Assembly (NCBI GenBank): GCA_973895155.1
Contig: OZ316891.1
Span: 23,373,899-23,437,898, forward strand
DNA from: Marsupella aquatica
Taxonomy: Eukaryota > Plantae > Marchantiophyta
DNA: 64,000 nucleotides
Direction of reading: 5' to 3'
Positions 17,456-64,000 of this stretch are shown here, piece after piece. Under the pieces are notes generated by a model, which did no database searches, was not told the origin of the DNA, and saw only the letters and a list, made by a program, of their open reading frames with translations. The position numbers were made by a program, and so were the translations under genes. Positions within the stretch are counted from its first letter, which is position 1. Each line of letters opens with the position of its first letter.

Positions 17456-20400
17456 TGTCACGTCGTCGGCTTCGGCCTTAACTCAGACTTCAGCTTAGAC
17501 GGGCACATCCCTCATAAATCTAAGGGTTCGGGCAGGAAGGGAAGCACATAATGCACCTTATTCTCGTAAACTAGCGCTAAGTGCGCATACTGCTAAATAC
17601 GGACACCTCCTAGGTATGGTTTGTGTTCCGCCGCCGAAACGTACCTTAGTCGATAGCAGGATCAACCCCGGCTTAAGGGCTTCTAAGCCTTCGTGTTGTC
17701 CGCCTTCGATCCGGATTCGATGATACAGGTCCTCAACCCGTGCTCGCAACCACTTACCCGCAGGCTGCACCCTGTGCACGTCTCGGGTAGTGCGTTCGGC
17801 CTGGCGCTGCCACCCATATACGAGAAACCCACACACATACACGCACACATGCATACAATCTCGATTTACACGAAGGAAAATGATGGGAAAGGATTTTACT
17901 ACAAAGGGAACATATGCGTACACTTAGTTGACCCGACAGCCCCGGAATGAACAGGTTCAAGGCCGAGGGTGCACACTACAACGGAGCCCGGCTCCGCACT
18001 CGCCCGACGAGCTTAGTCCTACCCCCCCTTTGGTACTCTTTCATTCCCAGAGGTCGGGACTCCCCGCATATACCGCGGACGTCCAACTCTGAAACTAAAA
18101 ACCCCCCCCTTGCCTCTACCAAGGGGTGCACTAAATACTAAGGGCCGAGGGACGGGGTGTCCTCTCGCCGAAGATTCGCTGACTAAGGTCCTAACTAAGC
18201 TGACAGTCAGGCCAGAAAACGGCTGTGTCTTATTAGAAGATCCTAATCTATGCAGGCTGGACAGCATGGCAGCGCTGCTGTACCTAAGGCAGGTGCCTGT
18301 CCCAAGAGCCTGACTAAGCCAGTCCTAATCCTAATCTATTCCTACTCCGCTGCTAATGCCTGGCACGCTTGCCAAAGCCGCCCGAATGGGAGCGGCCATC
18401 CCGCTGCCTTCAAAGCCTGTCATTGTCCGCCTTGAGGAGCTGGACCTGGTCCAGCAGAGATTTGTTCTCTCGCCTCACCGCGTCCGTCTCCTCTGCTGCC
18501 TCCTGACATGCCTCCTCCAGCTGCTGGGTGTCGCTCGTCAGTTTACCCGCCAGCTGGTCCTGCTTTTCGGCCTCGGTTTGGAGCCGCGCCACCTCGGCCT
18601 GCAGCGTGGCTATCTCCGCCGTGTCCCGTTGGGCCCGTTCCTCGGCCTCCTCCAGGTCTTTCTGCCAGGTGACAGTTTGATTCTTCAAACTGTCAATCTG
18701 GTTCCGGAGTCGTGTAATCTCGGCCTTGTTCCCAGCTTTGGTCTGTTCGGCTAGGGCGGTAAGAGCGTGCGCCTTTGCGAACAACTCATCGGCGGCTGCA
18801 ACCTTGGGTTGTAGTTGCAGAAGCTCAGCCTCTTGAGCCGCAACTTTGTTCTTTAGGTACACGGACTCCACCCGGTACCGCTCTATCCTCTGAAGGGCCT
18901 CTGACTGGGCCCGACCTGCCTTTACTGCGGCAACCAACTCCTGATTGAAGAAACAGGCTACCTTCCGGGCCATGAACTCCCCGGTATCCCGGGCAATTTG
19001 ATGAGAGAAATCTCTCAAAAGCCCGTTCAGAAATGTACCCGGTACGAAGAGTTCCGGGTGGTCCAGGTTGTGCCTGTCCGGAGTTGGGCACGGGCAGACG
19101 TCAACACGCGCGGGGGCCGGGGGAGTGACGTCCAGCCCTGGAGTGTCCTCCTGCAGCAATGTCCGGTTCTCCGGAATAGCCACCGGTGGGTCTTTGGGAG
19201 ACCCGGGCTCGGGTAAGACCTCCGCCGTACCGACTTCTGTACTTAGCCCGGCTTGTTGGGTCGCATCAACGGTTGCCACAACCGACCCATCCGGTACCTC
19301 CTCGGTTATGACTACAGCTACTTGTGGAGGTGGGGTGGGTGAAGCTGGCGTGTCCGCTGGACTTCGGGCCTCGGGTTGGGGCCGTCTCTCCAAGGCCGGG
19401 AAAACCCACCTAGCTGGGACCAGCTTTGTAACGTTGACACGGGGAAGGGTTCGTCGATCAAACCGGGCGTACCACTCAAGAATGATCTCGATGTGGCTAG
19501 CGAAATACGCCTTCCCGCCAATGTACAGCGTCTTCCTTTGCCGCTCCATTTCTTCATGGAATTTCTTAGCGAAGTACGACGCCCACTTCCTAGGTCGATA
19601 GTTCTCGACCTGGATAACCTGGGCGGCGGAGATCTCCCCCCGGGGTTCCATCATGTGGAGGGCGTACCTTTGGAACTCCAGCCGCTCAGCTATCTTGGGC
19701 ATGAGGCAGGTCCTCATCACAAACCCGTTGTCCACTGCTCCCTCCGAAGGAAAACTTGAGGATTGGTACTTGGCTCCCTTGCCCCCGGGAGCCCGTGATT
19801 CGACTCGATGGTCACCTTCGGGTAGTCCGAAGATCATCTTGAGCCGTTCTTCCGTGAGGGACATATTCCTTCCCCGCAGCCGAGTCTGTTGACGTACGTC
19901 ATCATAATTCTTGACGAATTCTGTCATGTCCTCCCCGTAGTACCTGCAAGTGTTCCAGGGGAGAGAGGTGAGGTGCTCAAATCCCTGAGTCTTCAGGTAC
20001 ACCGCATGCTTGGGATGGAGGATGTTGTTGTGAACGTTTTCCCCCATGCGGTGCATCGTCACCTTGGCTACGGCTACCGTGGCCAACGGTAACCCGGATG
20101 CAGTGGCGGATTCCTTCCTCTTCTTCCCCCGTGACTGGCTCGGGGAAGGTGACACTTCCCCATCCTCCCGATCGGGCCAGGGTAGTGCCACTGTCGTTAG
20201 TAACGGGCCCGAGGCGGCCACGGTCACCATGTTGTCTGCCGGGGCCGCTCCTGGGGTTAGAGCAGGGGGTGGGGACGATATAGTGTCGGCCCCCTGAGCG
20301 CTTGTTCCTCTAGGCCGCCTGGTCAAGGGTGGGGTAGCCTCGTCGTCATTGCTAAGATCCACAGCGTTGATGACGGAGCGTACTTGTGCTGGCTGGGCGA

Positions 20401-21450
20401 TCGGTGGTGGGGTTTGGCTAGGCTGCGGCTGAGGCTGAAGCTGAAGCTGAGCCTGAGGTTGAGCCTGAGGTTGCATGGGTACGGGTACGGGTACGGGTTC
20501 GACTGAGTTGGTCATGTTGGTTGATGGCCGAGTTCCCATGAAGCTCTGCAGGTGCTGGTAGAAGTTCTCCGAAGCAAGTGCAGACGACCTTGTCGAACGG
20601 TTAGTATTGGACTCGCTGTTGATGATAGCCCGAACCTGAGCAGGGATGTGGTCAAAGTGATGTCGTTGCAAGTCGATCGTCCTCGGGATATTGAAGACCT
20701 CATCCGGAAGCCAAAGCAATGCTTCCCAAAAACCGATATATTTGTCTCCGTTGAAGAAGTACCCAGATACATCTGCTGGTCAGTAAAGCTCGCTCTAAGA
20801 TGGGTAGTCAAAGTTAAGGATGTAGTGGTGTCGTCCTGCTAGGCGGATGGCTCTCTCGTACTCGCGTTTGATTTCGTATCGGCGCGGGTTGGCGTGTTTC
20901 AATGAGTCGGCCAAGTGCCTTCCGGTAGATAGGAACTGCATCCAGAATCGAATGGCCGAGCTGGAGAGGATCGTGTGCGACATTCAGAGGAGATAGTAGT
21001 GGCGACTTAGAGCAAACGAGAGAGCTGGGGTCAAAGCTGGCGCGTGGACTGATGGACTGGTGCACTACAAAGGGTTGGCTCCCCTTTTATACCTTGAGGG
21101 CTTGTCGATCCCTCGACGTCTCCTCGACGCCCATAGGCTGAACCGCTCACGCTTGTGGTGTACCGGCCACTCCGCCGGTCTGAGTTAGCGCGTGTCAGTG
21201 GTCGCTTCCTTAAGTTTGTTATATGGACCCGAGGGAGGGGCCCCTCCACGCTCGTAACTCGGGTGTGCGAATAGCGACCCGCCGCCAGTCCAAACCTGAA
21301 TTCCCCCTTATTGCCTAATAATGTCCTACCCATAATGATTATCTAAATATTGTCGTTATGCTAATAATAGCGGCCTAAGACACTCCTAACGCGCATGCTA
21401 AGCGCAGTTAGACCGAATCACTCATTAACCGCCGTACCGGTGGCGTCACA
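17456..21450 (-). mobile_element. Giant solo LTR (3995 bp) carrying a long ORF, inserted in the tandem repeat
   Basis: Termini TGTCAC...GTCACA, the same as element B's LTR; perfect 5-bp TSD CACAC (17451-55, 21451-55); cleanly interrupts the satellite unit (CATGGACACAC|TTTGGCAAAT); no internal direct repeat, PBS or gag/pol seen; minus-strand TATAAAA at ~21085-21091. Confidence 0.85.
18410..20719 (-). CDS. LTR-borne accessory protein (769 aa open frame; first ATG at 20539, 709 aa): Pro/Gln-rich N-terminus, central TE accessory domain, Pro-rich linker, C-terminal coiled coil
   Basis: Uninterrupted long ORF; heptad-rich C-terminus (EIATLQAEVARLQTEAEK); homologous fragments at 27054-28133. Confidence 0.8.
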   Translation of the reverse strand: MLWLPDEVFNIPRTIDLQRHHFDHIPAQVRAIINSESNTNRSTRSSALASENFYQHLQSFMGTRPSTNMTNSVEPVPVPVPMQPQAQPQAQLQLQPQPQPSQTPPPIAQPAQVRSVINAVDLSNDDEATPPLTRRPRGTSAQGADTISSPPPALTPGAAPADNMVTVAASGPLLTTVALPWPDREDGEVSPSPSQSRGKKRKESATASGLPLATVAVAKVTMHRMGENVHNNILHPKHAVYLKTQGFEHLTSLPWNTCRYYGEDMTEFVKNYDDVRQQTRLRGRNMSLTEERLKMIFGLPEGDHRVESRAPGGKGAKYQSSSFPSEGAVDNGFVMRTCLMPKIAERLEFQRYALHMMEPRGEISAAQVIQVENYRPRKWASYFAKKFHEEMERQRKTLYIGGKAYFASHIEIILEWYARFDRRTLPRVNVTKLVPARWVFPALERRPQPEARSPADTPASPTPPPQVAVVITEEVPDGSVVATVDATQQAGLSTEVGTAEVLPEPGSPKDPPVAIPENRTLLQEDTPGLDVTPPAPARVDVCPCPTPDRHNLDHPELFVPGTFLNGLLRDFSHQIARDTGEFMARKVACFFNQELVAAVKAGRAQSEALQRIERYRVESVYLKNKVAAQEAELLQLQPKVAAADELFAKAHALTALAEQTKAGNKAEITRLRNQIDSLKNQTVTWQKDLEEAEERAQRDTAEIATLQAEVARLQTEAEKQDQLAGKLTSDTQQLEEACQEAAEETDAVRRENKSLLDQVQLLKADNDRL

Positions 21451-40186: not shown

Positions 40187-41166
40187 TGTCACCTGCTTAT
40201 CAAACAATTTACACGAAAAATACGTATTTACTCCTACTAAAATCGTTTGTTATCATATGACGAGAACGTGGAGGGACGCTATTAGGATTCTATTGCATGT
40301 AGGATGAGTATGTGTATTTCCGCTCCCGGAAATGTAATTTTTGATCAAGTCTACTGACTAGCCTCTCTGCTTTTGATCAAGTCCCATGGACTACGCCACA
40401 CACACACTCCTGTTGGTCGCTGGTGGAGTGGTGTCACCATCCCCCCCTACTCACATGGTTGACCAATCCGTGCAAGGATTCCTTAGACACTTCTTGGGAA
40501 AGAACACAATATATCATGAACCAGAAAAGATAACCCCACACCAAAACTTGAGGAATCAAACCAAATCCATATCTTTTGGCAAAAAGTGGTAACACATTGC
40601 AAGGACAACCCGGCCTCCTGCCGTCTGCCCAACTCCTGCCTCACAGGGGCAAGCGCTACACCTCTACCTCACTACTCTGGCTTGATTTCCCCTTTTGGCT
40701 ATGAGCTAACTTCCCTAAAACCCACACTAGATTGAGTTCCCCCCCTTTGCTCACTACGGGGCTCCCCCCTAAATACTGAAAAAACACCAAAGCACCCCTC
40801 ACGGAGTGGCAACTACGGCGACAACCCTAGCGGCGCCACCAAAAACATCTAAGAAATAAACTAACCTAAAGTGTGCGGCACACACACGCTGTGAAAAACC
40901 CTAGCCCACTACGGTATCAACGGTGCCTTCGCCGATACTAACATCCAATCCGTAGTGCATGAAAAGCAAGGACCCAAGAGAAACGAGGCGGTAAACATTA
41001 GAACTATTGGGATATAAAACAAGTAGAACCCTCCAGGGCAGAGCCACCTATAATGAGCGGCATAAACATTCAAAACAAAAAATGGCTTTTTTACAATGGC
41101 TATTTACATTGCACACCACTCTGCGACCCATTATTCGTGATTTTGAGTGATGGGGACCCCGTCACA
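40187..41166 (-). mobile_element. Solo LTR (980 bp) related to element B's LTR but lacking the internal ORF
   Basis: TGTCAC…GTCACA termini; perfect TSD TGCTC (40182-86, 41167-71); left ~740 bp aligns by eye to 50967-51725 and right ~200 bp to ~54835-55044. Confidence 0.88.
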
Positions 41167-47168: not shown

Positions 47169-47975
47169 CTAAAAATTGTCACGATTAACAGGAACACCAT
47201 TATCAAGTCTTTCTTGAACCTGTTCAATGTACCAGTTATCAACACGAGTCCTTTTCCAAGACTCTACTTGCGCTTGCTCAAGACCATATACGGAGAGGTA
47301 GCAATCCACTTCCTCTGAAGCACATAACAACCAAGAATCGATCCTTTCATTTAAGATACTATCAGACAACCGACTCCAAACATTGATCGGTGGGAACGCT
47401 CTCACTGAATCTCGAAAGAACAAAGGGGTCACTGTAGGCCATCTTACGCAACAAAATGCTATAGCTGTAGTCATTGCAACCCATAGTATGGAGTTTGTTA
47501 TCAAATGTCTCCATTTCCTGTTGATATGAGCAACTGATCGCACCGTCAGGAAGAGAGTCTTCACTGGATGATGACCATCCCGAACTGGATCCAAAACTGC
47601 AACACCTTCGAGCATTGACCGAATCCGGGGCCAGATGTGCAACTCCACAACCTCATCAGGCAACCCTGGAATCAAGTTACTCACTGGAGGGTGACATCGT
47701 AGGGGATAACGAGGATTCCAAATGCGAGCACGGTCTTGTTCCTTACTAGCCAGAAGCGTCCGCAATTCCAATCTAAGCTTTTGTTGTGTCCTATCAATCA
47801 AAAGCTCACATTCGCCTGCGCCGCAATCCATAGTAAGTTTGTAACAAAAAAACATGCCTAATCTGAGAGCGGGCGGATGGTCTACCCTCCTATTGTGACC
47901 CTGTCCATAGCAAACCCTAAACACTAAACTGACAAGAACAACGGATACATAATATCGGTCACATAAAATGGTCAT
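47169..47975 (-). CDS. F-box-like protein (intronless), paralog of 45838-46479
   Basis: RYPLR…NLIPGLPDEVVELHIWPRI…VAHINRKWRHLI. Confidence 0.65.
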   Translation of the reverse strand: MTILCDRYYVSVVLVSLVFRVCYGQGHNRRVDHPPALRLGMFFCYKLTMDCGAGECELLIDRTQQKLRLELRTLLASKEQDRARIWNPRYPLRCHPPVSNLIPGLPDEVVELHIWPRIRSMLEGVAVLDPVRDGHHPVKTLFLTVRSVAHINRKWRHLITNSILWVAMTTAIAFCCVRWPTVTPLFFRDSVRAFPPINVWSRLSDSILNERIDSWLLCASEEVDCYLSVYGLEQAQVESWKRTRVDNWYIEQVQERLDNGVPVNRDNF

Positions 47976-50661: not shown

Positions 50662-52077
50662 TTGTTATGTCTAGGCAACAGACAAAATAGGTGTATCCGA
50701 GCGTATCTCGGAGAGCTTCGCCGAGATCCGACGTGTTGACGGATATCATGCATAGGGAGGGAAAGTGTTAAGACACTTACGAGTCTCAAAAAGTTTCCCC
50801 ATTGAGAAAACCGAACAATCCACTAAGACATCCACGTGGTGAGCTCCTTTGCTTTTCCTGGTAGCGCATTGCCCTCATTCCACCACGTTTTTAGCTTCTC
50901 AAAAACTCTATAGGCAAGAACTATATTACCGGCATGCCGAAGTGAATCCAACAATTCTTTATGCTCTGTCACTTGCCTCTCCAACGGTTAATACGTGCAA
51001 ACCGCACTTTTCTTCGCTTAAACCGTTGGTATCGTATTACGGGGTCGTGGAGGGACGCTATTTGGATTCTTTTCACACCAGGATGAGTATTTTGGTTTCC
51101 GCTCCCGGAAATGTAGGTTTTGATCAAGTCTACCGACTACCCTCACCCCACAGCTTTTGATCAAGTCCTGCCGACTACCCCACTACACCTTCACTCGGAG
51201 TCACCCAAAGAGTGCTGTCACCACCCCTACTCACAAGGCCGACTCAAACCAAGCAAGTTTCTTCAAATCATAGAACGGGAGAACACAATTCGGAAAGCGA
51301 AAAAGGGAGAAGGAACACACAACAAAAGCCCATCAAGTCAAATGTACAGATCCATATCTCTTGGGAAAAACGATACACATTGCATGAGTAACCCGGCCTC
51401 CTGCCGTCTACTCAACTCCTGCCTCTCCGGACAATGAGTATGGCTCCCCCTCACTACTCTGAACACGCTTTCAAACTCCTCAGGCTCCACTCTATCCCTC
51501 CTTGCTAACTTCACACTGAGTCCCCCTAACTACTTCGGGGCTATCCCCCTAAATACTGAAAAATCACACCAAAGCACCCCTCACAGGGTCACAACGGTGG
51601 CGGCTACCCTAGCGGCGCCGCTAAAACCTTGCACTAAGAGAAATCCTTAAACTGAAGAGGAGCATGCGGCACACACATGCTGCTAAAACCCTAAACCCAA
51701 AACAAGGGGGCCGACGGTGCCTTCGACGGCGCCCCAACAGTACACGTGAACCCTGAAAGTGAGAGGCACCCCAAAATGGCCGAAACTAGGTGCCCTTCCA
51801 AGTGCACACCTGAGCTCACCCCTGGATAGCTCTTCTTTTCCTGCTTCCGAATCACTAAGTCGCTCCCTCAACGGACTTCAGACGCCTGAGTTATGGCCGT
51901 TTCCGTACCGCAAAAACATAAGTTCTCCAGGCCATAACTTGCTCATCCTGGCTCCGTTTGAGGAGCGCCGCCTCTTGTTGGAATCAGCTCCGCGAGCTCA
52001 TCCCAACAAGCCCATGAGTGACCCCCCACTAAAATGTTGGAAATCTGGAGGCCGTACACCCACGTCCGTACGCCTAT

Positions 52078-53934
52078 CTAATCCTCCTCTTCTTCTTCGC
52101 TCTCGGTGCCCGGACTTGTGCCCCGTGAGTGGTCCTCCTCCTCATCACTCACGGGAGTGAGTGCCACCGTACTTTTCTTCTTCTTCGACGGAGTACTCTT
52201 AGTGCTGCTGCTCCCGCGCTTCCTCAAAGCAGCCAAGGCCTGCCACGCCTTGATGTACCCCTCACCAATTGTGTCCTTCCAGAGGGTAGCCTCTTCTCCG
52301 GACCGCAACTCCAACGGTAGAACTTGCCCCGTGGCCATGGGAGTCCCGGGGGTGACAGACCTGGGTGGCATCCCCGTACTGACCTGAGCCTCCCGTAACG
52401 ATTTCCGTACCTCCCGGAGCTTCTTCTCCAAGCTCTTACTCTTCTCCTGACTCTTCTTGGCTCCATCCAACAAGGGTCCATACTTCCCACTAACCTCCTT
52501 CACCACCATCTCGATAGCTTGGGAGATCACATCCGGGGAAAGTGTGGAGCCAGGTGTGCCGGGACTCTTCCGTTTCCCTAGACTCAGGGCCTCACTTCTC
52601 TTCGCTCGTGTCTCAAAGGCTGCCACCTGACTCCGTAGTGCTCCCACCTGGTTCCTCCACTCCATCACTTCTCCAGAATTTTGCTTCTCTTTGGCCAATG
52701 CTTGCCTCAACGCTCCTACTTCTTCTGCTTCCTTGGCCTTGGTGGACAAAGCTCCCTTCAAGTTGGTGATCTCTACGTGAGCTGCATTGATGTGCCTGAC
52801 CTTCTCATGAATGGTCTGCTCCTTGGTCTTGATCACCTCCTTCAGTGACAGGATGCTCTGCTCTAACGTCTCTACTTTGACTGTGGCGTGCTTGAGAGAC
52901 TCCCTCAATGCGTGGACTAGCTTGAGTCCCTCGTGGACTCCCTCTCTGAAATCCCGTAGCTCTGCCAAGTAAACATCCGGAATGTTGTATTCCAGAGGCT
53001 GTTTCGGATCTCCCACGAGTGATTCAAGCCACTCCAATGTGCAATCATCCTCCTGGTTCTCTTCTTCTCTATTATCCTCCCCACCAGCAGACAATGATTC
53101 CTCCGTGAGCTTCCCTAAAACGGTAGTGGCAATACTCCGGATCTCCGTGGTGAGAGATGATCCCGTGTCTTCATGCCCCGGAGAACCAATCAACCCTTCT
53201 GCCCTGGCCAATACAAATGACCCCATCAAATGTACAGCCCCACCTGGTTTCACACTCCCGGGCTCAGCGGCCAATAGCTTCTTCAATCCGTAGCACCACC
53301 ATCCGTACACATGGGCTGGGTAGTTCTTGATGTCCATAGCTACCACGAAATGCTCCTCATTCAGCACTCCGGATTGCACGTTGCCAAGAACCCGTTGATG
53401 CACCTTGGCCAGGAAGCCCTTATACTCAACATCCTTGACAGCAGAAAGAGGGATGGCGGTGGTGGAGGTAGGATTGGTCACCCAAGTGGCCACCATTTTC
53501 AACGTGAGTTCTCCCCTGATATTCCGAGGTGTGAATGAGAATTTCTGATTCTCAAGAAACAATAGCTTAGCCAACTCCACATGGGGCACTACACGTTTGA
53601 GACATTCAAAGTAGATTCCCTCCGTTCGGAACTCCATCCCGGCCTCAATGTCCCAGCTCTTCCCTGAAGGGATGGTAATCTCCACCTTCATGAATTCTGT
53701 AAGCCCGGTGGCTTGGAAAATGTTCCGACAATCCTCCATCACCTTGGTGGAGGTCTTGGGATAAATTCGACGAAAAATCTTCCTACCCACCGGTGAGGAA
53801 CCCGCTGCCAATCCCGTGCTCATCATAACTTCTCTCTCTTCCCTTTCCCGTGTAATCCGAGTCTCCACGTAGTCACGGTAAGCAGCCTTGTATCTCCGAA
53901 TGCGTGACGCACTAAACTCTGGTTGATCTAGCAT
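52078..53934 (-). CDS. LTR-encoded 618-aa protein: N-terminal globular domain, long coiled coil, basic NLS-like and acidic tail
   Basis: Intact ATG-stop ORF wholly inside the LTR; second copy at 62774->64000 differs by one visible substitution (52868 g vs 63564 a, T to M); PSKKKKS and LGKRKSP motifs. Confidence 0.85.
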   Translation of the reverse strand: MLDQPEFSASRIRRYKAAYRDYVETRITREREEREVMMSTGLAAGSSPVGRKIFRRIYPKTSTKVMEDCRNIFQATGLTEFMKVEITIPSGKSWDIEAGMEFRTEGIYFECLKRVVPHVELAKLLFLENQKFSFTPRNIRGELTLKMVATWVTNPTSTTAIPLSAVKDVEYKGFLAKVHQRVLGNVQSGVLNEEHFVVAMDIKNYPAHVYGWWCYGLKKLLAAEPGSVKPGGAVHLMGSFVLARAEGLIGSPGHEDTGSSLTTEIRSIATTVLGKLTEESLSAGGEDNREEENQEDDCTLEWLESLVGDPKQPLEYNIPDVYLAELRDFREGVHEGLKLVHALRESLKHATVKVETLEQSILSLKEVIKTKEQTIHEKVRHINAAHVEITNLKGALSTKAKEAEEVGALRQALAKEKQNSGEVMEWRNQVGALRSQVAAFETRAKRSEALSLGKRKSPGTPGSTLSPDVISQAIEMVVKEVSGKYGPLLDGAKKSQEKSKSLEKKLREVRKSLREAQVSTGMPPRSVTPGTPMATGQVLPLELRSGEEATLWKDTIGEGYIKAWQALAALRKRGSSSTKSTPSKKKKSTVALTPVSDEEEDHSRGTSPGTESEEEEED

Positions 53935-54351
53935 CCATGCATCCCGAAATCAATTTCTCAATCACCAATCCCGTCACCCGTGGCAATGTCAATTCCCTGG
54001 CCCAAAACAGCCCCCGTAGCCCGATCACTTAAATTCTCTCAATTTCCCGTCACTACTCCGTGCGGCCGCCACTAATGCCTGGAAGAATGACGCCAGCAAG
54101 CCCCACTAATCCACCATGAAAGAGAGAGCTTCAAAAATAATTAGAATCTGGAGAGAGCTTCCGGCAAGAGAGAGAAGAACCCCGTTTTTGCTTTCGGCAA
54201 TGAGAGGGTCGTGCAAAAGGAAGAGGGAAAGAAAAAGGAAGGAAAAAAAAATAGAACCGAAAAAACTCCTGGCGCCTTCGCCATGCGCCCCGGCCCATTT
54301 CTCGGGCCTTACCCTTGCGTCCTCCTGCGCGCGGCCCTATGCAGGGCGCGC

Positions 54352-54680
54352 GGCCATTCCTCCCAGCTCGCGGGAGGCCCTTTAACTCCCCCCCGCTCGC
54401 GTGATCCTCCCAGCTCGCGGGAGGCCCTTTAACTCCCCCCCGCTCGCGTGATCCTCCCAGCTCGCGGGAGGCCCTTTAACTCCCCCCCGCTCGCGTGATC
54501 CTCCCAGCTCGCGGGAGGCCCTTTAACTCCCCCCCCCCGCTCGCTTGCGCTCCTTCAGCTCGCGGAGCCTCATTAATTGCCCGGGCACGCAGCCCTATGG
54601 GCTCGCGAGGCAGCCCCTTCAGCTCGCGGAGCCCCATTAATCGCCCGGGCACGCAGCCCTATGGGCTCGCGAGGCAGCCC
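54352..54680. repeat. GC-rich tandem repeats in the LTR upstream of the LTR ORF (4 x ~47 bp + 2 x ~62 bp)
   Basis: CCTCCCAGCTCGCGGGAGGCCCTTTAACTCCCCCCCGCTCGCGTGAT x4; CAGCTCGCGGAGCC..ATTAAT.GCCCGGGCACGCAGCCCTATGGGCTCGCGAGGCAGCCCC x2. Confidence 0.9.
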
Positions 54681-55008
54681 CTCTTTCTCTCGGACGGCCA
54701 CTAATGGGACTCGCCCTCCTGAGGAGGGATTTATTTAAAAAAAAACCCCCCCCTCTCCTGACTTTGCAATGGGGGTCTCAACAATAGCTCTTGAAGCAAA
54801 ACGGTAAGTCCTATGGGGCTGGTCCTGGCTAGTTTCAAGGTCCCAAAATATTTGCCCACTTAGGTCGCCGCAAATCTTAGAACTATTATGAGAGAAAGAA
54901 TATAAAGTCACCTGGGGCATCATCAACCTATAATGACGGAATTAACTAAAAATTAAAAAATGGCTTATTTACATTGACTATTAACAAGGTATCGGCCTTT
55001 GCAACCAG

Positions 55009-58000
55009 TTATGTGTGACTTCCCGTGACGGGGTACCCGTCACATAGCTCCTCTCTTAATTGCGAAGCGCCCCCGCGAGCACCATACTCTTCCTCCGTGT
55101 AGTACTTCTTTAGGCGCTCTTGATTGATCCGTGTGTTGAGTAGTTGCCCCTCCAATGTCTTGAGTTGAACCGAGCCGTTGGAGTAGACGGCATCCACTAC
55201 GTAGGGTCCCATCCACCGTGTATGCAACTTCCCGGGGAAATGCATGAAGCGGCTATCGTAGAGGAGCACCAAATCTCCCTCCTCAATGGACACACGACGG
55301 AGACGGGAATCGTAATGTGACTTGCGTTTGCCTTGCTCCTGCTCCGTATGTGTCAAAGCCTCTTCTCGTGTCTCCGTGAGTTGCTCCAACTGTTGGATCC
55401 GTGAAGCGACACTTTCTTCTGCCCCTTCCCTTTCCCGTGTTAGGATTCGAATGGTTGGAACCTCAAATTCCACCGGCACAAGAGAGTGTTGTCCAAACAC
55501 AAGGAAATAGGGGCTGTGGCCCGTGGTAGTCTTGTGAGCCAGGTTGTAAGCGTAAGTGGCAGCCAACAACTTCAAATCCCAATCGGTCTTGTGAGCGGAT
55601 ACCGTTTTGTTGAGGATCTTGCCCATGATCCCGTTGGCTCTCTCAGTGAGCCCGTTGGCTCGAGGGTGGTACGGAGTGGTCTTCCTATGTGAGATCAAGT
55701 AGTTCTCCGTCAAACGTTCAATCGTATGATTGAGGAAGTGAGTACCCCTGTCACTTACCAACTCCAATGGTGGACCAAATCGTGTAAAAATCTGCTCATA
55801 CAAAAAACGTGCCGTGGTGTTGGCATCATCCTTGGCAGTAGCTCGGGCCTCCACCCACTTGGTGGCATAGTCCGTTGCAAGAATGATGTAGCGCTTCCTC
55901 CCTCTTCGTGTGATGGGAGTGAAAGGGCCAATGAAGTCCACCCCCCACTTCTCAAAGGGTGCAAGAGGAAGTATGGGCACCAATGGGTGTCGTGAGGAGG
56001 GCCCTGGTTTGCCTTGACGCTGGCACGGATCACATCGCTGGATGTACCGGTGTACATCCCGAAAGAGAGTTGGCCACCAATATCCAGCATCTAGTATTTT
56101 CCTTGCGGTGGTCTCCCGTGCAAAGTGGCCACCAGCTTCCTCCTCATGTAATGCTGCCATGACTGTATGTATCTCCGCTTCCTCCAAACAACGACGAAGT
56201 CGGCCATCCATGCCGTACTTGTGAAGTACTCCCTTCACAAGCAAGTAGGGACCTGTCTTACGCAAAAACACTGCTGCTCTCTCCGGGCCCAAACGTGAGG
56301 GAACTCTAGCCGTGCGGAGAAATTCCAAAATTTCTCCATACCAAGTAGTGGCCTCTGTATTCACGCTGAACACTTCCTCATCCGGGAACCGATCATCAAT
56401 CTCCTGGGAGTCAGATGCTCCCTCAATACGGGAGAAGAAGTCTGCATTGCTATGACTCTTCCCCGATCTTACTCTCACCTCATAGTTGAACTCTTGTAGC
56501 AACAAAACCCAACGTGCAATTCTCCCGGACAGATCTGGCTTGTTGACCATGTATTTCAAGCTGTTGTGATCCGTGTGGAACACAACCTTGTACCCCAACA
56601 AATAATGACGATACTTCTTACAAGCGTAGATGATACCAAGTGCCTCCCTATCGGTGGGTGAGTAGTTTTTCTCTGCCGGGGCCAACTGCCTACTGGCAAA
56701 GTAGATGGGATGGTCTCTTCCATCATCATCTAACTGACTCAAAACGGCACCGATGCAAAATCCTGATACGTCTACGTAAACATGGAATTCCTTATTCCAA
56801 TTGGGCGTAATGAGCACGGGGGCCTCTAGCAATCGTTTCTTCAATTCATCAAAAGCAGCCTGACGGGAAGGAGTAGGTTCAAACTCACTTCCTTTTTTCA
56901 ACATGGAAGTGAGTGGCATGGCTACCTTGGCAAAGTCTTTGATGAAGCGTCGGTAGTAGCCAACACACCCCAAGAACCCTCTCACTTCCTTCACATTCTT
57001 GGGAAATGAGACTGCTACCCACACGGCGACCTTCTCACGATCAACTTCAATCCCTCGTGCAGACACTTTGTGGCCCAATAGGATTCCCTCCTCAATTCCA
57101 AAGAAACATTTCTCCGGATGCAGCTTCAGGCAAGTCTCCCGGCACCGCTGAAAAGTCAACCGTAAGTGTTCCGGATGCTTGACTCGTTTGCCGTAGACAG
57201 CAAAGTCATCAATAAAGATCTCCAAGAACCTGCGTAAAAAGTCATGAAATATATTCATCATGAGCCGTTGGAACATGCCAGGGGCATTGCACAACCCAAA
57301 AGGCATTCTCCGGAATGCAAAAATCCCCCACTCTGTTGTGAAAGCCGTCTTGAGTTGGTCCTCCTCCCGTATCCAGATTTGGTTGTACCCAGAGTAGCCA
57401 TCCAAGAAGCTGTATATCTCCCAACCTGCTACCATGTCCAACACGATATCCGTGAACGGTAGCGGGTAGTGATCCTTCTTGGTCGCATCATTCAACTTTC
57501 GAAAATCTTGGCACACCCGTATTTTCACCTTCCCGTCTGGCCCCTTTTTCTTGGGCACGATTACGATGGGTGACACCCACTCACTATGCATGACCGGATA
57601 AATGAATCCTGCATCCAACAAACGGTCAATCTCCTCCTTCACCATGAGTGAGTATTTGGGGTTGAGGCGGTATTGGCGTTGCCTCACAGGTCGTGCTCCT
57701 GACATCAGGTCAATGCTGTGCTCACCAAACTCAGGTGGCACTCCTTTCAAATCTTGGTGGCTCCACGCAAATACGTCTTGGTACTCTTTCAACAATTCCT
57801 GAATCGTGCGTTGCTCCGTAGCATCCAACTTACTACCAATGTTGAGTGTCTTGCCCTCACCCACTTCCACCTTTGTGTACTGCTCCGGCCTGATCACGTC
57901 CAACTTGTTGCGTGTCTCCTCATCAAAGGTTTCTTCCAACCGTGCGAGCCTCATCCCTCCATACACCGGTGCATCACTCTCCTCCTGGTCTGGTCGGGAT

Positions 58001-61000
58001 GGAGGTGGATCCTTTGTCACATGGGCCATTATTTCTTCAACGTCAGATTCTTTGTAATGTGACAATAGCTCCTCTCTAAAGTCATCATCCAGGATGTCAT
58101 TCAAAAACTGCTCTCTTTGCTCATCATCAAACATGATCGTGTGGGCTTGCATTTCCACCTCCTCGGGGTGATCCTCTGCCTCCCTATCATGAATCTCTAG
58201 AGGTTCAGCCTCCATAATTTTGCTTCGCTCGTCTTCCATCTCTTCTAGAACAGCGTGCACTTGGCTAACTGATTCCTCTACTGCATGCTCTTGAGTAGCA
58301 ACTCCGGGGCCAAAAACATCTTCCTCCGTGAGGTGAGAAATCAGTTTCACCATGTATACTTCATCCTCGTCTTCATCTGAGGTGACCTCTGAATCATATT
58401 CCTCCTCCATAGTCGTAGTCTCCCCGTGAGGTGACTCCGCTGACCATGGAATAGTGATAGTGGGGATACCAAACCGAAACTGCCGTTTGCCCCAATCACT
58501 TGTGACCTTGGCCACATACAACCATGGCCTGCCAATTAAAATGGGAAAACCGTACGGCCGAACGGGTCGCATCACCAAATAGTTGAGGGGGAAAGATTTT
58601 CCCCCAATCATTGTTGGAATCTTGGTGAGACACCCCAACGGCACCACCCGTGCACCATCAGCCAACCTCATGGCACGTGCCGGTGGTTCTAACTCTGTAT
58701 ACCCCAACCGGTTTGCCGTCTCCTCAGTCATGATGTTGACTCCCGAGCCCCCGTCCACCGGTACAAACCGTATTGCACATCCATTGATGTCCACCGTGAG
58801 TTCTGGGGCACCCAAATCCTCCGTGACCCAGTTGACTTGTATGGGGTCAGCCCCAACTTTGGGTAACCTTCTTCTACGTCTCCTCCTCATGAGAATCTCC
58901 TTGACTTGGCGACGGTATAGGGAGCTATCCCGTAATAGTTGACCAATTGTGGCACTGACTGGGCAATCCAGAATGTCTTGAGCAATGTTGTACGCGGTTG
59001 CAGGAGGTATGGGTGGGATGACCTCTTCTCCCGGTTTCCAACGAACAACCCTCTCCTCCGCTTTCTTTCTGGCCTTTGCCTCCTCCATGTCTTTGTCAAT
59101 GGCCGCTTGCATGGCTTGTGCTTCTAGCTCCTCCAACTGCTTACGTACCTCTTCTCCCACCTTCGGATAGAACAACTTGGGGTTGTCCCGATCAAAGTCA
59201 CTATCCTCCATGGGTGGCACCTCCGGTTCGTGTGAGGTACCCGATGTGGAAGCTTGATGCACCTCCTTGTACTTCTGCTTGAGCTCGGACTTGCCCTTCT
59301 TTTTGCCGGATCGAGTGGAGACTCGGTAACAAGAGTAATGCCTTCTCTCCTCGTCGCTGTCTTCCTCCGGTAGATTCTCAGCATGAGTCCACTCATGACT
59401 TGGGGGTGAGGGGTTAGCAACTTCAACTTCCGTAGATGTTGCAACAACAACCACCGGTATCTCAACAACTGGAGATACTACAACGACTAGCGGTACCACC
59501 TCCTCCGTTATGGTGGTCATCCTTTGCTTGGGAATGTTCACTACGGTTTCTTCTCTTCTAGTGATTAGAGGGGTGTCGACTGCTTCCGTGGTGAGAAAGT
59601 TGACGCTAGCTTCTTTCAGAGGAGGTGGCGGCCCCTTCTTCTCTTGTGCCCCAATCGGTTGAGCCTTGAACGCCTCCAAGGTTGGGCAGTGTGGTGCAAG
59701 ACGACCCTCCCCCTTGCATAGTTGACACAGCCGGGCAAAATCTCCATTGCCTTGACGGGTGGGCTCTGGGCACACATTAGCGTAGTGGCCCGCCACTCTA
59801 CAATTGTAACAAATAGGGATCTTCCTCACTCCAGGGTACGGTGGTCGATTCCCTGGGTTAGCGTTGGAATAGTTGGAGTATGCGGGTGCTCCGGCGTTTG
59901 TTGAAACTCCATGAATGCTCCGTGGTCCCGGGTTGAGAGGTTGTACACTATACACGTTGGCCTCTGGTGGCTCCTCCATGAAGTACTCTATTGGCCCTTC
60001 CGCTGCATATGAAGGATTTGAGTAGCTTGCCCCCTCAACATCCTCCTCCCGTACTTGGAAAACCTTGGCTGGTTCTCCCGCTGGGCACTCCTTCGGGGCA
60101 TGACCAAACTTCATGCACTTGGTGCACCACACATTGGCTCTCTCCACCGGAACTTTTCTCCTCTCAGGTTTGAGTCCGGCAAAATGTACTTTCAACGCTT
60201 TCATTTGCTCCGTCAGCTCATCATATCTGGCCTCTTGCTCCTTCAGGCGTCTTGCCGTAGACAATGGTGTAACGGCCACCGTGGGTAGTATCACTTCACG
60301 GTGAGAGGACTTCTTGACTTTCTTTGACAACTTCTTCTTCTTCCTCCTTCGTCTTTCAGCTTCTGACTCCGTAGTGTCTGACTCTGTAGTACTCTCAGAA
60401 TCCTCAGATTCATCACTACTATCTGAATCAGATCCACTCGACTCCTCACTGGAGGAACTGTCAACCGGCTTCAGCTTCTTTCTTCGGCAACGCTTGCTTG
60501 TGGCATCAGCTGCGGTGTATGACTCCGCTGCTGCAATAGCTTCAGCCAATGTGGTTGGCTTGGCTTGACGTACAAAGAACCCCATCTTGCTTGGTAGGGC
60601 AGCCACAAACCAGGCTTGACGCATAGCATCATCGGTACGGGCTTGGATCCGACGTACCAGCTTTTGGAACCTTTGCAAAAACCTCCGTAATGACTCCTTC
60701 TTCTTCATCCTGAGTTGGCCCACCTTTAATAGTGAGGTGGCCTCCACTCCTATGGATCTGAACTCCTTCAAGAAGGCTTGCTTGAACAGAGCCCAATCAG
60801 CTTTCACGTTGGCCAACAACGAAATGAACCATGGACCTGCCTCCCCTCTCATCATTCCAGGAATGATAGTGAGCTTATGTGCAGACTCCCCATTAGCTTC
60901 GGCAATCCCTTCAAACTCCTCAATCCATTCGTCTGGATCATCCTTTGGTCTCCCCTTGAAGGGTACGTACTGAACACGGGTACGTTGTGCAGCTGCCATC

Positions 61001-61407
61001 GGTGCAGCCGGTGCCTGTATCAACACAGGTGGTAATGGCGCTTGTTGGGCCACCGGTAACAGCACCGATGATAGGTGTGAGATGATTTGTGGCAATGCAG
61101 TGAGCTCTGGGATCAGATTTTGTAACTCAGACTGCACCAACACAAAGGGCTCTCCTTCTTCTCGCTCGTGATCTATGTCTGGCTCTTCGTCTGGGCATAT
61201 GGCCTCATTACGTTGAGCCTCTTCCTGTTGCACACCAACTTGTTCTTCCAGCACCAGTGGCAACCTCCTCTCTTCTGCAAGCCGTAAGCGTTCTTCGGCA
61301 GCAACTCGTCGTCTGGTCCCAATCCAAGAGGGCCCCCCTTCTAGCTCTGATCTTGGGGTACGTGTGTGTTGGGGACTTCCTCTACCTCCCCTTCTCCCTC
61401 TCGGCAT
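55009..61407 (-). CDS. gag-pol: Gag-Pol polyprotein of element B (2132 aa, single frame)
   Basis: Gag, zinc knuckles (third has H to R), protease VDGGSGVN/LIGRPWL, RT FIDDF, RNase H, integrase HHCC/DDE, WMGPY; the last 11 codons run into the 3' LTR. Confidence 0.97.
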   Translation of the reverse strand: MPRGRRGGRGSPQHTRTPRSELEGGPSWIGTRRRVAAEERLRLAEERRLPLVLEEQVGVQQEEAQRNEAICPDEEPDIDHEREEGEPFVLVQSELQNLIPELTALPQIISHLSSVLLPVAQQAPLPPVLIQAPAAPMAAAQRTRVQYVPFKGRPKDDPDEWIEEFEGIAEANGESAHKLTIIPGMMRGEAGPWFISLLANVKADWALFKQAFLKEFRSIGVEATSLLKVGQLRMKKKESLRRFLQRFQKLVRRIQARTDDAMRQAWFVAALPSKMGFFVRQAKPTTLAEAIAAAESYTAADATSKRCRRKKLKPVDSSSSEESSGSDSDSSDESEDSESTTESDTTESEAERRRRKKKKLSKKVKKSSHREVILPTVAVTPLSTARRLKEQEARYDELTEQMKALKVHFAGLKPERRKVPVERANVWCTKCMKFGHAPKECPAGEPAKVFQVREEDVEGASYSNPSYAAEGPIEYFMEEPPEANVYSVQPLNPGPRSIHGVSTNAGAPAYSNYSNANPGNRPPYPGVRKIPICYNCRVAGHYANVCPEPTRQGNGDFARLCQLCKGEGRLAPHCPTLEAFKAQPIGAQEKKGPPPPLKEASVNFLTTEAVDTPLITRREETVVNIPKQRMTTITEEVVPLVVVVSPVVEIPVVVVATSTEVEVANPSPPSHEWTHAENLPEEDSDEERRHYSCYRVSTRSGKKKGKSELKQKYKEVHQASTSGTSHEPEVPPMEDSDFDRDNPKLFYPKVGEEVRKQLEELEAQAMQAAIDKDMEEAKARKKAEERVVRWKPGEEVIPPIPPATAYNIAQDILDCPVSATIGQLLRDSSLYRRQVKEILMRRRRRRRLPKVGADPIQVNWVTEDLGAPELTVDINGCAIRFVPVDGGSGVNIMTEETANRLGYTELEPPARAMRLADGARVVPLGCLTKIPTMIGGKSFPLNYLVMRPVRPYGFPILIGRPWLYVAKVTSDWGKRQFRFGIPTITIPWSAESPHGETTTMEEEYDSEVTSDEDEDEVYMVKLISHLTEEDVFGPGVATQEHAVEESVSQVHAVLEEMEDERSKIMEAEPLEIHDREAEDHPEEVEMQAHTIMFDDEQREQFLNDILDDDFREELLSHYKESDVEEIMAHVTKDPPPSRPDQEESDAPVYGGMRLARLEETFDEETRNKLDVIRPEQYTKVEVGEGKTLNIGSKLDATEQRTIQELLKEYQDVFAWSHQDLKGVPPEFGEHSIDLMSGARPVRQRQYRLNPKYSLMVKEEIDRLLDAGFIYPVMHSEWVSPIVIVPKKKGPDGKVKIRVCQDFRKLNDATKKDHYPLPFTDIVLDMVAGWEIYSFLDGYSGYNQIWIREEDQLKTAFTTEWGIFAFRRMPFGLCNAPGMFQRLMMNIFHDFLRRFLEIFIDDFAVYGKRVKHPEHLRLTFQRCRETCLKLHPEKCFFGIEEGILLGHKVSARGIEVDREKVAVWVAVSFPKNVKEVRGFLGCVGYYRRFIKDFAKVAMPLTSMLKKGSEFEPTPSRQAAFDELKKRLLEAPVLITPNWNKEFHVYVDVSGFCIGAVLSQLDDDGRDHPIYFASRQLAPAEKNYSPTDREALGIIYACKKYRHYLLGYKVVFHTDHNSLKYMVNKPDLSGRIARWVLLLQEFNYEVRVRSGKSHSNADFFSRIEGASDSQEIDDRFPDEEVFSVNTEATTWYGEILEFLRTARVPSRLGPERAAVFLRKTGPYLLVKGVLHKYGMDGRLRRCLEEAEIHTVMAALHEEEAGGHFARETTARKILDAGYWWPTLFRDVHRYIQRCDPCQRQGKPGPSSRHPLVPILPLAPFEKWGVDFIGPFTPITRRGRKRYIILATDYATKWVEARATAKDDANTTARFLYEQIFTRFGPPLELVSDRGTHFLNHTIERLTENYLISHRKTTPYHPRANGLTERANGIMGKILNKTVSAHKTDWDLKLLAATYAYNLAHKTTTGHSPYFLVFGQHSLVPVEFEVPTIRILTREREGAEESVASRIQQLEQLTETREEALTHTEQEQGKRKSHYDSRLRRVSIEEGDLVLLYDSRFMHFPGKLHTRWMGPYVVDAVYSNGSVQLKTLEGQLLNTRINQERLKKYYTEEEYGARGGASQLREELCDGYPVTGSHT
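55045..55058 (-). promoter_or_regulatory. Polypurine tract of element B
   Basis: Minus strand TAAGAGAGGAGCTA immediately before the LTR start TGTGAC. Confidence 0.75.
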
Positions 61408-61624
61408 CCCATTGAGACCTGCATTCCAAACTTACACCAATGTCTCAGAAAGCAATATTTGTAAACATCAACCGTCGCACGATGCGTTGTGGTTGACGTA
61501 CAATAACAAAGTAACCAACAAACTTCTCACGTATCAACCGTCGCAAGTTGCGTTGTGGTTGATAGGTTTGAACTCCCAATAGACGTAGCTCCCCTCCTTC
61601 GTGTCGTCAAACAAGAAGAAGGAT

Positions 61625-61642
61625 TCCCCGGCAGCGGCGCCA
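61625..61642 (-). promoter_or_regulatory. Primer-binding site (tRNA-Asp type) of element B
   Basis: Minus strand TGGCGCCGCTGCCGGGGA, identical to element A's PBS. Confidence 0.9.
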
Positions 61643-61662
61643 AAAACAAAAGACCACACTTA

Positions 61663-64000
61663 TGTCACTTGCCTCTCCAACGGTTAATACGTGCAAACCG
61701 CACTTTTCTTCGCTTAAACCGTTGGTATCGTATTACGGGGTCGTGGAGGGACGCTATTTGGATTCTTTTCACACCAGGATGAGTATTTTGGTTTCCGCTC
61801 CCGGAAATGTAGGTTTTGATCAAGTCTACCGACTACCCTCACCCCACAGCTTTTGATCAAGTCCTGCCGACTACCCCACTACACCTTCACTCGGAGTCAC
61901 CCAAAGAGTGCTGTCACCACCCCTACTCACAAGGCCGACTCAAACCAAGCAAGTTTCTTCAAATCATAGAACGGGAGAACACAATTCGGAAAGCGAAAAA
62001 GGGAGAAGGAACACACAACAAAAGCCCATCAAGTCAAATGTACAGATCCATATCTCTTGGGAAAAACGATACACATTGCATGAGTAACCCGGCCTCCTGC
62101 CGTCTACTCAACTCCTGCCTCTCCGGACAATGAGTATGGCTCCCCCTCACTACTCTGAACACGCTTTCAAACTCCTCAGGCTCCACTCTATCCCTCCTTG
62201 CTAACTTCACACTGAGTCCCCCTAACTACTTCGGGGCTATCCCCCTAAATACTGAAAAATCACACCAAAGCACCCCTCACAGGGTCACAACGGTGGCGGC
62301 TACCCTAGCGGCGCCGCTAAAACCTTGCACTAAGAGAAATCCTTAAACTGAAGAGGAGCATGCGGCACACACATGCTGCTAAAACCCTAAACCCAAAACA
62401 AGGGGGCCGACGGTGCCTTCGACGGCGCCCCAACAGTACACGTGAACCCTGAAAGTGAGAGGCACCCCAAAATGGCCGAAACTAGGTGCCCTTCCAAGTG
62501 CACACCTGAGCTCACCCCTGGATAGCTCTTCTTTTCCTGCTTCCGAATCACTAAGTCGCTCCCTCAACGGACTTCAGACGCCTGAGTTATGGCCGTTTCC
62601 GTACCGCAAAAACATAAGTTCTCCAGGCCATAACTTGCTCATCCTGGCTCCGTTTGAGGAGCGCCGCCTCTTGTTGGAATCAGCTCCGCGAGCTCATCCC
62701 AACAAGCCCATGAGTGACCCCCCACTAAAATGTTGGAAATCTGGAGGCCGTACACCCACGTCCGTACGCCTATCTAATCCTCCTCTTCTTCTTCGCTCTC
62801 GGTGCCCGGACTTGTGCCCCGTGAGTGGTCCTCCTCCTCATCACTCACGGGAGTGAGTGCCACCGTACTTTTCTTCTTCTTCGACGGAGTACTCTTAGTG
62901 CTGCTGCTCCCGCGCTTCCTCAAAGCAGCCAAGGCCTGCCACGCCTTGATGTACCCCTCACCAATTGTGTCCTTCCAGAGGGTAGCCTCTTCTCCGGACC
63001 GCAACTCCAACGGTAGAACTTGCCCCGTGGCCATGGGAGTCCCGGGGGTGACAGACCTGGGTGGCATCCCCGTACTGACCTGAGCCTCCCGTAACGATTT
63101 CCGTACCTCCCGGAGCTTCTTCTCCAAGCTCTTACTCTTCTCCTGACTCTTCTTGGCTCCATCCAACAAGGGTCCATACTTCCCACTAACCTCCTTCACC
63201 ACCATCTCGATAGCTTGGGAGATCACATCCGGGGAAAGTGTGGAGCCAGGTGTGCCGGGACTCTTCCGTTTCCCTAGACTCAGGGCCTCACTTCTCTTCG
63301 CTCGTGTCTCAAAGGCTGCCACCTGACTCCGTAGTGCTCCCACCTGGTTCCTCCACTCCATCACTTCTCCAGAATTTTGCTTCTCTTTGGCCAATGCTTG
63401 CCTCAACGCTCCTACTTCTTCTGCTTCCTTGGCCTTGGTGGACAAAGCTCCCTTCAAGTTGGTGATCTCTACGTGAGCTGCATTGATGTGCCTGACCTTC
63501 TCATGAATGGTCTGCTCCTTGGTCTTGATCACCTCCTTCAGTGACAGGATGCTCTGCTCTAACATCTCTACTTTGACTGTGGCGTGCTTGAGAGACTCCC
63601 TCAATGCGTGGACTAGCTTGAGTCCCTCGTGGACTCCCTCTCTGAAATCCCGTAGCTCTGCCAAGTAAACATCCGGAATGTTGTATTCCAGAGGCTGTTT
63701 CGGATCTCCCACGAGTGATTCAAGCCACTCCAATGTGCAATCATCCTCCTGGTTCTCTTCTTCTCTATTATCCTCCCCACCAGCAGACAATGATTCCTCC
63801 GTGAGCTTCCCTAAAACGGTAGTGGCAATACTCCGGATCTCCGTGGTGAGAGATGATCCCGTGTCTTCATGCCCCGGAGAACCAATCAACCCTTCTGCCC
63901 TGGCCAATACAAATGACCCCATCAAATGTACAGCCCCACCTGGTTTCACACTCCCGGGCTCAGCGGCCAATAGCTTCTTCAATCCGTAGCACCACCATCC
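61663..64000 (-). repeat. 5' LTR of element B (partial; predicted to end ~65740)
   Basis: Near-identical to 50967-53304. Confidence 0.93.
62774..64000 (-). CDS. 5'-LTR copy of the 618-aa LTR-encoded ORF (N-terminus beyond window)
   Basis: Near-identical to the C-terminal ~400 aa of 52078..53934. Confidence 0.85.
   Translation of the reverse strand, partial: GWWCYGLKKLLAAEPGSVKPGGAVHLMGSFVLARAEGLIGSPGHEDTGSSLTTEIRSIATTVLGKLTEESLSAGGEDNREEENQEDDCTLEWLESLVGDPKQPLEYNIPDVYLAELRDFREGVHEGLKLVHALRESLKHATVKVEMLEQSILSLKEVIKTKEQTIHEKVRHINAAHVEITNLKGALSTKAKEAEEVGALRQALAKEKQNSGEVMEWRNQVGALRSQVAAFETRAKRSEALSLGKRKSPGTPGSTLSPDVISQAIEMVVKEVSGKYGPLLDGAKKSQEKSKSLEKKLREVRKSLREAQVSTGMPPRSVTPGTPMATGQVLPLELRSGEEATLWKDTIGEGYIKAWQALAALRKRGSSSTKSTPSKKKKSTVALTPVSDEEEDHSRGTSPGTESEEEEED

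Follow-up and report, generated by a model that had tools for sequence, protein, structure and literature searches.

Can a plant retrotransposon carry a complete gene inside its long terminal repeat (LTR) and, if so, by what route could the gene have come to lie there? The question is raised by a 64,000-nt stretch of the genome of the liverwort Marsupella aquatica (contig OZ316891.1, positions 23,373,899 to 23,437,898; hereafter the window, the single stretch analysed here, whose own numbering is used throughout). One end of the window is occupied by a Ty3/gypsy LTR retrotransposon of ∼14.8 kb, read on the minus strand, which is non-chromoviral, Athila-like and very young, and whose 3′ LTR encloses an open reading frame (ORF) of 618 codons. 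Taken as a whole, the evidence probably describes a young Athila-like element with an intact gene in its LTR, likely within U3 (the unique 3′ region) and likely placed there by a shift of the polypurine tract (PPT). The features on which this reading draws are:

40187..41166, minus strand: 980-bp solo LTR of a related family (∼70%), with the target-site duplication (TSD) TGCTC on both sides and without the ∼3.1-kb gene-bearing middle
50967..55044, minus strand: 3′ LTR, 4078 bp, sense TGTGAC...GTGACA, delimited by repeat comparison, contig depth step and the 980-bp solo LTR
51550..51555, minus strand: TATTTA, a putative TATA box for the genomic RNA, located 589 nt short of the LTR 3′ end
51827..51839, minus strand: AAAAGAAGAGCTA, a PPT-like motif that follows the ORF stop by 250 nt and may be what is left of an older terminal PPT
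52078..53934, minus strand: 618-aa accessory ORF, wholly inside the 3′ LTR, between the 50967 edge and the PPT
54358..54676, no strand assigned: GC-rich tandem repeats of 47-bp and 64-bp units upstream of the ORF, putative U3 promoter or leader
55009..61407, minus strand: gag-pol ORF in a single frame, 2132 aa, with Gag, CCHC knuckle, protease, reverse transcriptase (RT), RNase H and integrase
55045..55057, minus strand: functional PPT AAGAGAGGAGCTA (sense), within the final pol codons and immediately ahead of the LTR start
61625..61642, minus strand: primer-binding site (PBS) TGGCGCCGCTGCCGGGGA, 20 nt from the 5′ LTR edge
61663..64000, minus strand: 5′ LTR, cut by the window end, carrying the last 408 codons of a second ORF copy (62774-64000)

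Positions 50967-53304 were found repeated at 61663-64000, a match of 2338 bp with a single mismatch (at 52868, giving T356M), and the insertion must therefore be very young. Similarity between the two copies stops sharply at TGTCAC, with none left of 50967. A first-pass annotation of this DNA had placed a 3′ LTR from TGTCAC (50967) to GTCACA (55044) beside a PPT, with the 618-aa ORF wholly inside it; both limits were confirmed, AAGAGAGGAGCTA directly adjoining the second, as was the position of the ORF (52078-53934, minus strand). The same annotation had the ORF recurring after the PBS in the 5′ LTR, which the 2338-bp repeat bears out for the 3′ 408 codons that fall within the window. Both ends of the long LTR also match the 980-bp unit at 40187-41166 (69% over 737 columns and 73% over 121 columns; z 121 and 31, 100 shuffles), which terminates at the same base. 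This unit had been described as a TSD-flanked solo LTR matching both ends; the TGCTC duplication and the matching ends were found as described, but the unit belongs to a diverged family (∼70%) and is not a copy of the same one.

The LTR edge was further examined using public contigs from four sequencing runs (X1, X2, X4 and X5) aligned to positions 54765-55800. In X1, 55044 is the exact end of the main identical contig (depth 1523.6), the internal contigs having depths of 688-719, while in X2, from another study, the LTR side reaches 5630.6 against 2957-3088 for the internal side and the contig ends at 55032. Thus, two of the four runs gave an approximately twofold depth (summed contig depth, which is not copy number) on the LTR side of the 55044 edge. 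A ratio of about 2 with the break at the PPT indicates an LTR edge rather than a tandem or segmental duplication, the alternative that the first-pass annotation had itself set out; it is disfavoured by X1 and X2, with no step in X4 and X5. The earlier claim that each insertion delivers two gene copies is likewise supported by the repeat in the window and by the depth step in these two runs. Because the PPT and TGTGAC stand at 55044, the 980-bp solo LTR has the same ends, and contig depth and contig edge agree in two of the four runs, the LTR is, almost certainly, truly long (4078 bp). Contigs of a diverged subfamily in X1 and X5 share the LTR start and then depart from it, though still recognisably alike, left of 54833. 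The left flanks of the two independent insertions (40177-40186 and 50957-50966) have TGCTC as their last bases and are identical at 9 of 10 positions, a possible target-site preference.

The single gag-pol frame has the order Gag-protease-RT-RNase H-integrase, as judged from Pfam and motifs; RT, RNase H, integrase and gag exceeded the curated cut-offs and the protease was a weak match (E 0.005). The PBS is of the TGGCGCCG(C/T)TGCCGGGG type, which we take to be the Athila tRNA-Asp type and which recurred in 9 of 80 related loci. Neither a chromodomain nor an additional (archaeal-type) RNase H was detected in the 2132-aa polyprotein (Pfam, E ≤ 0.1), the criterion given for Athila (OTA) in PMC6317226. 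The closest named pol relatives are from liverworts, Calypogeia fissa (69-73% identity) and Riccia sorocarpa (54-60%); no pol relatives were found in viral contigs. In a quick tree of 38 proteins, which included no labelled Athila, Phygy, Selgy or Tat references, the pol of the element joined two C. fissa proteins (SH-aLRT, an approximate likelihood ratio test, 100) apart from flowering-plant proteins; the clade assignment is accordingly given as Athila-like only. Membership of Phygy or Selgy was rejected, as these elements are short and lack extra ORFs (PMC6317226), against a 618-aa ORF and ∼14.8 kb here. In one respect the element departs from Athila itself, where the extra ORF is expected between pol and the PPT, for its ORF lies within the LTR. 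The functional PPT is found 57 nt behind the integrase RLKKY motif and the gag-pol stop codon 36 nt within the 3′ LTR; pol reads through the PPT into the LTR, and no 3′ internal region is present. A third PPT-like motif, GAAGGAGGGGAGCTA, was noted in the 5′ leader just behind the PBS (61586-61600, minus strand).

The 618-codon gene and its product

The ORF spans 623 stop-free codons, compared with a maximum of 296 in 300 shuffles. Thirteen homologs of its product were recovered at E ≤ 0.001 (HMMER, 1.84 billion representatives), with identities of 27-62%; many of these are fragments, and together they span the N-terminal region, the coiled coil and two motifs, near residues 300-335 and 546-573. 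A word-index search found no homolog among 7994 candidates, and no relatives were found in viral or metagenome contigs. Regions of the protein are:

residues ∼50-250: conserved N-terminal region
residues 320-451 and 467-520: predicted coiled coils
near residues 546-573: conserved motif
residue 582: PSKKKK basic motif, ahead of an acidic tail

No Pfam family matched the protein, the only hits being sub-threshold coiled-coil matches. AlphaFold models were poor overall (pLDDT, the predicted local distance difference test, 44 for the sequence alone and 51 with 8 sequences), with long helices predicted at 320-451 and 467-520 at pLDDT ∼60-80. Structure searches returned nothing at E ≤ 0.001 in Foldseek and a best Z of 5.4, on helical fragments, in VIA-align. 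The protein has no hydrophobic or membrane segment (highest 19-residue Kyte-Doolittle mean 1.09), and an envelope-like role, which would call for a transmembrane segment, was rejected. The product is likely a soluble, nuclear, oligomeric accessory protein. A role in nuclear chromatin or silencing control on behalf of the element is a tentative possibility, with packaging, nuclear import and targeting as open alternatives. The first-pass annotation had suggested a trans-activator or an anti-silencing factor, which may hold, the family and fold searches speaking neither for nor against it. In passages of two reports, an Athila extra ORF is described with Transposase_32 and a nuclear localization signal (NLS; PMC11728184), and coiled-coil pentamers are predicted for an Athila domain and for the anti-silencing factor VANC (PMC13547354).

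Where within the LTR the gene falls depends on where transcription starts. Measured from the LTR 3′ end, the distance to TATTTA is 589 nt in the long LTR, again 589 nt in the 980-bp LTR, and 682 nt in a 3995-bp solo LTR of a second family (see below). If this motif is the promoter of the genomic RNA, then the repeat region (R) and the unique 5′ region (U5) together measure ∼560 nt and the gene lies in U3, a position that we regard as very likely. An A/T-rich TATA-like stretch is located 306 nt from the start of the long LTR. A second promoter in the first kilobase would seem clear in the 3995-bp LTR; in the 4078-bp LTR it is only suggested, by this stretch and by the GC-rich 47- and 64-bp repeats. 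We judge that the gene is probably expressed.

Accessory genes in relatives and in solo LTRs

Alignment with pol retrieved 80 related loci (L numbers below), the scan covering part of the collection. An extra ORF in sense orientation follows pol in each of the five closest pol relatives (54-63%). L002 reads, in order, pol, a PPT-like tract 53 nt after the stop, the ORF, a terminal PPT, a 991-bp LTR and the PBS, and L003 is arranged alike; the terminal-type PPT falls 2856 and 2036 nt after the pol stop in L002 and L003, respectively, and the PPT-like tract of L003 falls 76 nt after pol. The internal PPT-like tracts of L002 to L004 are situated 60-85 nt behind the integrase end motif, compared with 57 nt for the PPT of the window element. 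A further internal control is provided by a second gypsy element in the window (36-12113, minus strand), in which a sense 857-aa extra ORF follows pol internally (525-3098). The LTR of this element is ∼1.4 kb long and without an ORF (10727-12113), its gag-protease (1017 aa) and pol (963 aa) occupy separate frames, and it has a further 158-aa ORF that presumably, from its look, is protease-like.

A different arrangement was found in L001, where U5, ahead of the PBS, ends in a perfect 9-bp inverted repeat of TGTGGGAGC. The 7.5-kb contig has a single occurrence of this sequence, immediately after a PPT motif that follows pol by 86 nt; 514 nt further along, the extra ORF begins. As TGTGGGAGC is thereby an LTR start matching the U5 end, the L001 ORF would lie in an LTR, the second copy of which is off the contig. 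In L005 the same motif stands directly behind pol, with TATATAAAG before the ORF, in a contig without U5. L001 and L005 fall in the sister group of the window element (SH-aLRT 99, quick tree). Candidate LTR-borne genes were also noted in L005 (2388-4978) and L004 (2324-3332), where a PPT-like motif and TGT come directly behind pol and before the extra ORF.

The clearest counterpart within the window is a solo LTR of a second family:

17456..21450, minus strand: 3995-bp solo LTR, TSD CACAC, with a 709-codon ORF (18410-20539) and TATAAAAG 360 nt from its start

It starts TGTCAC and ends GTCACA (10 of 14 terminal bases inverted), contains neither an internal direct repeat nor pol, and interrupts a 580-bp tandem unit whose two flanks rejoin to an intact unit. 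The 709-codon ORF has the same orientation as its LTR and a canonical TATA box, TATAAAAG, upstream; the frame extends upstream past two in-frame stops, five codons apart, to an ATG ∼105 nt behind the TATA box, and this copy may be slightly decayed or spliced (a small intron). At the DNA level the 3995-bp solo LTR showed no similarity to the long LTR (z 0.5-2.0), and residues 140-380 of the 709-aa protein had no homolog among 1904 candidates in the word-index search. A decayed LTR-like unit (26220 to ∼29100, plus strand), which starts TGTGAC and for which neither the right end nor a TSD was found, holds a broken ORF 38-45% identical in protein to the 709-codon ORF. Codon-position identity between the two is 0.53/0.63/0.34 over 120 codons, which reads as a pattern of purifying selection on the LTR-borne copies of this second family. 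The first-pass annotation had proposed that solo LTRs keep the gene; this holds for the 3995-bp solo LTR of the other family, but not for the 980-bp solo LTR that it cited, whose longest stop-free run is 71 aa.

Leave-one-out profiles place the ORFs of L001 (E 6.5e-40) and L003 (1.4e-6) and the 709-codon ORF (2.5e-4, 2674 sequences) in the internal extra-ORF family, one of whose seven members, that of L003, matches Transposase_32 (PF20167; E 1e-4). A single accessory family is therefore found before the PPT in L002, L003 and the window element at 525-3098, and behind it in L001 and at 18410-20539 of the window. By sequence layout, the accessory gene appears to lie in the LTR in at least three families of the bryophyte clade (the window element, the 3995-bp solo LTR and L001).

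Other features of the window were also recorded. The 3995-bp insertion lies in an array (15735-23700) in which tandem units of ∼580 bp, each containing an imperfect palindrome, give way to 83-bp repeats. Likely host-gene exons at 31103-31642 and 37586-38167 (minus strand) encode a cytochrome P450 and a BAHD-type transferase (Pfam). Two ORFs (45838-46416 and 47169-47975, minus strand) had no Pfam match and share a LIPGLPD motif, which we presume to resemble F-box proteins. Nested 26/86/127/235-bp tandem repeats (47945-50280) lie beside a 376-aa ORF (49150-50280, minus strand) that had no Pfam match at E ≤ 0.1 and ends in CxC...CxH, to our eye similar to a SWIM finger.

Origin of the arrangement

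On balance, we lean towards an origin in which plus-strand priming moved to a pol-proximal PPT and pulled the gene into U3. Since members of a single accessory family precede the PPT in some elements and follow it in others, a move of the primer offers the simplest account. Genomic RNA would begin in the 5′ LTR, ∼30 nt past the TATTTA motif near 51550, and would carry the gene once, behind pol, where the relatives keep their 3′ extra ORF. Plus-strand synthesis would be primed at the PPT within the last pol codons, and everything behind pol, the gene included, would be copied into both U3 regions. Each LTR would then form a small complete transcription unit, with promoter and repeats in its first kilobase, the ORF, and a poly(A) site in R, and LTR-LTR recombination would leave one gene copy at the site. 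The older terminal PPT may survive as the vestige AAAAGAAGAGCTA, a motif expected 0.003 times per 350 nt, although it was chosen after being seen. Athila, including Athila4, is reported to have multiple or internal PPTs.

Several observations weigh against this reading. The putative vestige at 51827-51839 is not followed by TG, and over the 45 nt that precede it the functional PPT is more like the terminal PPTs of L002 and L003 (26 and 29 of 45) than like the tracts near pol in the same two loci (19 and 21 of 45). The 980-bp solo LTR shares both ends with the long LTR, and under a PPT shift the 980-bp unit would have to be a deletion product. The 618-aa protein gave an hhalign probability of 0.1-0.2% and no profile match against the extra-ORF family of the clade, and its Atlas leads to ATHILA ORF1 (0.81) and Transposase_32 (0.79) were reached by shuffled proteins one third of the time. 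A canonical TATA box was not found ahead of the 618-aa ORF. As for the LTR itself, bases 53305-54652 have no second copy in view and the outer end of the 5′ LTR lies beyond the window; run X4 showed no step (17.4 on the LTR side, 41.9 internally), X5 had no long identical LTR contig among the contigs listed, the depths are sums over contigs, and X1 may be the source sample.

The main rival, which we hold to be possible but rather doubtful, is that an ancestral short LTR of the 980-bp type acquired, through recombination or capture, a gene cassette of 3.1 kb in its U3, the PPT staying where it was. The matching ends of the 980-bp LTR, the terminal-like context of the functional PPT, and a 618-aa protein not detectably in the internal extra-ORF family all favour such a capture. 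It fits less well with L001 and the 3995-bp solo LTR, which carry members of a family that is internal elsewhere; in these, the order of PPT and then gene would have arisen with a resident gene. The absence of a 3′ internal region, the pol stop inside the LTR and the PPT-like vestige behind the ORF also count against capture, as do the limits of the middle segment, which have no terminal inverted repeat or TSD beyond chance matches of 7-9 nt. Nor did the 3.1-kb middle look like a nested DNA transposon, a source that was rejected because the window contains no inverted repeats ≥60 nt and the limits match over 7-9 nt only.

Alternatively, with a transcription start within a few hundred bases of the LTR start, the gene would lie in R/U5 and come first in the genomic RNA, like the 5′ ORF of Ogre or Retrosat2 except that it would stand before the PBS. 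The A/T-rich stretch 306 nt from the start of the long LTR and TATAAAAG 360 nt from that of the 3995-bp LTR are consistent with this layout. We consider it improbable, given that all three LTRs, the gene-less one included, retain TATTTA near their 3′ ends; the layout would also require a ∼3.7-kb minus-strand strong-stop DNA and splicing or reinitiation for gag-pol.

That the ORF is a functionless passenger, intact only through the youth of the family, would suit the single difference in 2338 bp between LTR copies and the many fragmentary homologs, but is quite improbable in view of the same blocks being retained by homologs at 27-62% identity and of the codon-position identities of the second family. 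Finally, the view that the true LTR is short (∼860 bp, behind the 51827-51839 motif) and the ORF internal, in a tandem dimer or segmental duplication, for which one could cite that motif, the outer end of the 5′ LTR beyond the window and the internal-ORF layout of L002 and L003, is highly improbable, since no TG follows the motif, the PPT and then TGTGAC stand at 55044, the TSD-flanked solo LTR ends at the same base, the X1 contig ends there, and X1 and X2 show ∼twofold depth on the LTR side.

A wider proposal can be framed, namely that the whole bryophyte Athila-like clade moved its accessory gene into U3, and that solo-LTR recombination, by which hosts chiefly remove such elements, leaves behind self-contained genes for nuclear anti-silencing or trans-activating factors that aid full-length copies. 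We regard this as unlikely.

Comparison with known systems

Extra ORFs of plant elements are described as internal, on either side of gag-pol, in PMC6317226, where 3372 gypsy extra ORFs are classed by 5′ or 3′ position and LTRs reach ∼5 kb, and in PMC7264820, which assigns additional ORFs to the internal region; LTRs are regarded as non-coding, and placement of a gene in the LTR departs from both. Passages of PMC12885004, PMC7466625 and PMC11656987 make no mention of LTR-borne ORFs, and a phrase-based search of the open literature turned up no case of a plant LTR retrotransposon whose LTR holds an entire gene, though the supplements of PMC6317226 may list some. The first-pass annotation had described LTR-encoded proteins as mainly a retroviral feature and had not seen the internal accessory ORFs of relatives. 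Because relatives carry such ORFs internally, the window case is best read as the relocation of an ordinary 3′ accessory gene and not as a retrovirus-like novelty in gene content, and those relatives serve as a natural control. If the gene is expressed, gene dosage per insertion would be doubled, and solo LTRs would supply lasting protein genes as well as spurious 'orphan' host genes in bryophyte annotations. The function of Athila-type accessory ORFs would, moreover, become testable in a young, abundant family of a transformable plant group.

Among plant elements, the Athila clade is the nearest comparison (OTA; sense 3′ extra ORF, Athila ORF-1 PF03078, Transposase_32 PF20167; PMC6317226, PMC7264820 and PMC11728184, each in part). 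The window element resembles it in domain order, in showing no detected chromodomain or additional RNase H, in PBS type, in a very long LTR with tandem repeats, and in an accessory ORF that follows pol in sense orientation and carries a basic NLS-like motif. It differs in that the ORF lies behind the PPT, in the LTR, and is duplicated, that the 3′ internal region is absent, that the 618-aa protein matches no Pfam family, and that pol groups with liverwort proteins apart from flowering-plant ones. Retrosat2, RIRE3 and RIRE8 (Tekay) likewise have long LTRs (>3 kb), an extra ORF of obscure function and many solo LTRs; however, they are chromoviruses, and ORF0 of the Retrosat2 group lies upstream of gag-pol and is not described as part of the LTR in PMC3485330. 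Grande gene23 and the Retand ORFs share with the window gene an accessory nuclear protein behind pol and a promoter of its own (PMC7264820, in part), but are antisense and internal, in a Tat clade with an additional RNase H.

A parallel in layout is the sag/naf ORF of mouse mammary tumour virus (MMTV), a whole gene in U3, present twice per provirus and served by its own U3 promoter P2 (PMC9412291, in part), and the window gene is likely also read from a second LTR promoter. The window element nevertheless has no env and is not a retrovirus, its protein has neither a membrane segment nor a sequence link to sag, and the origins of the two would be independent. The 618-aa protein is also ∼2× the length of MMTV sag. 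A moved plus-strand primer would offer a simple route to the layout known from MMTV sag.

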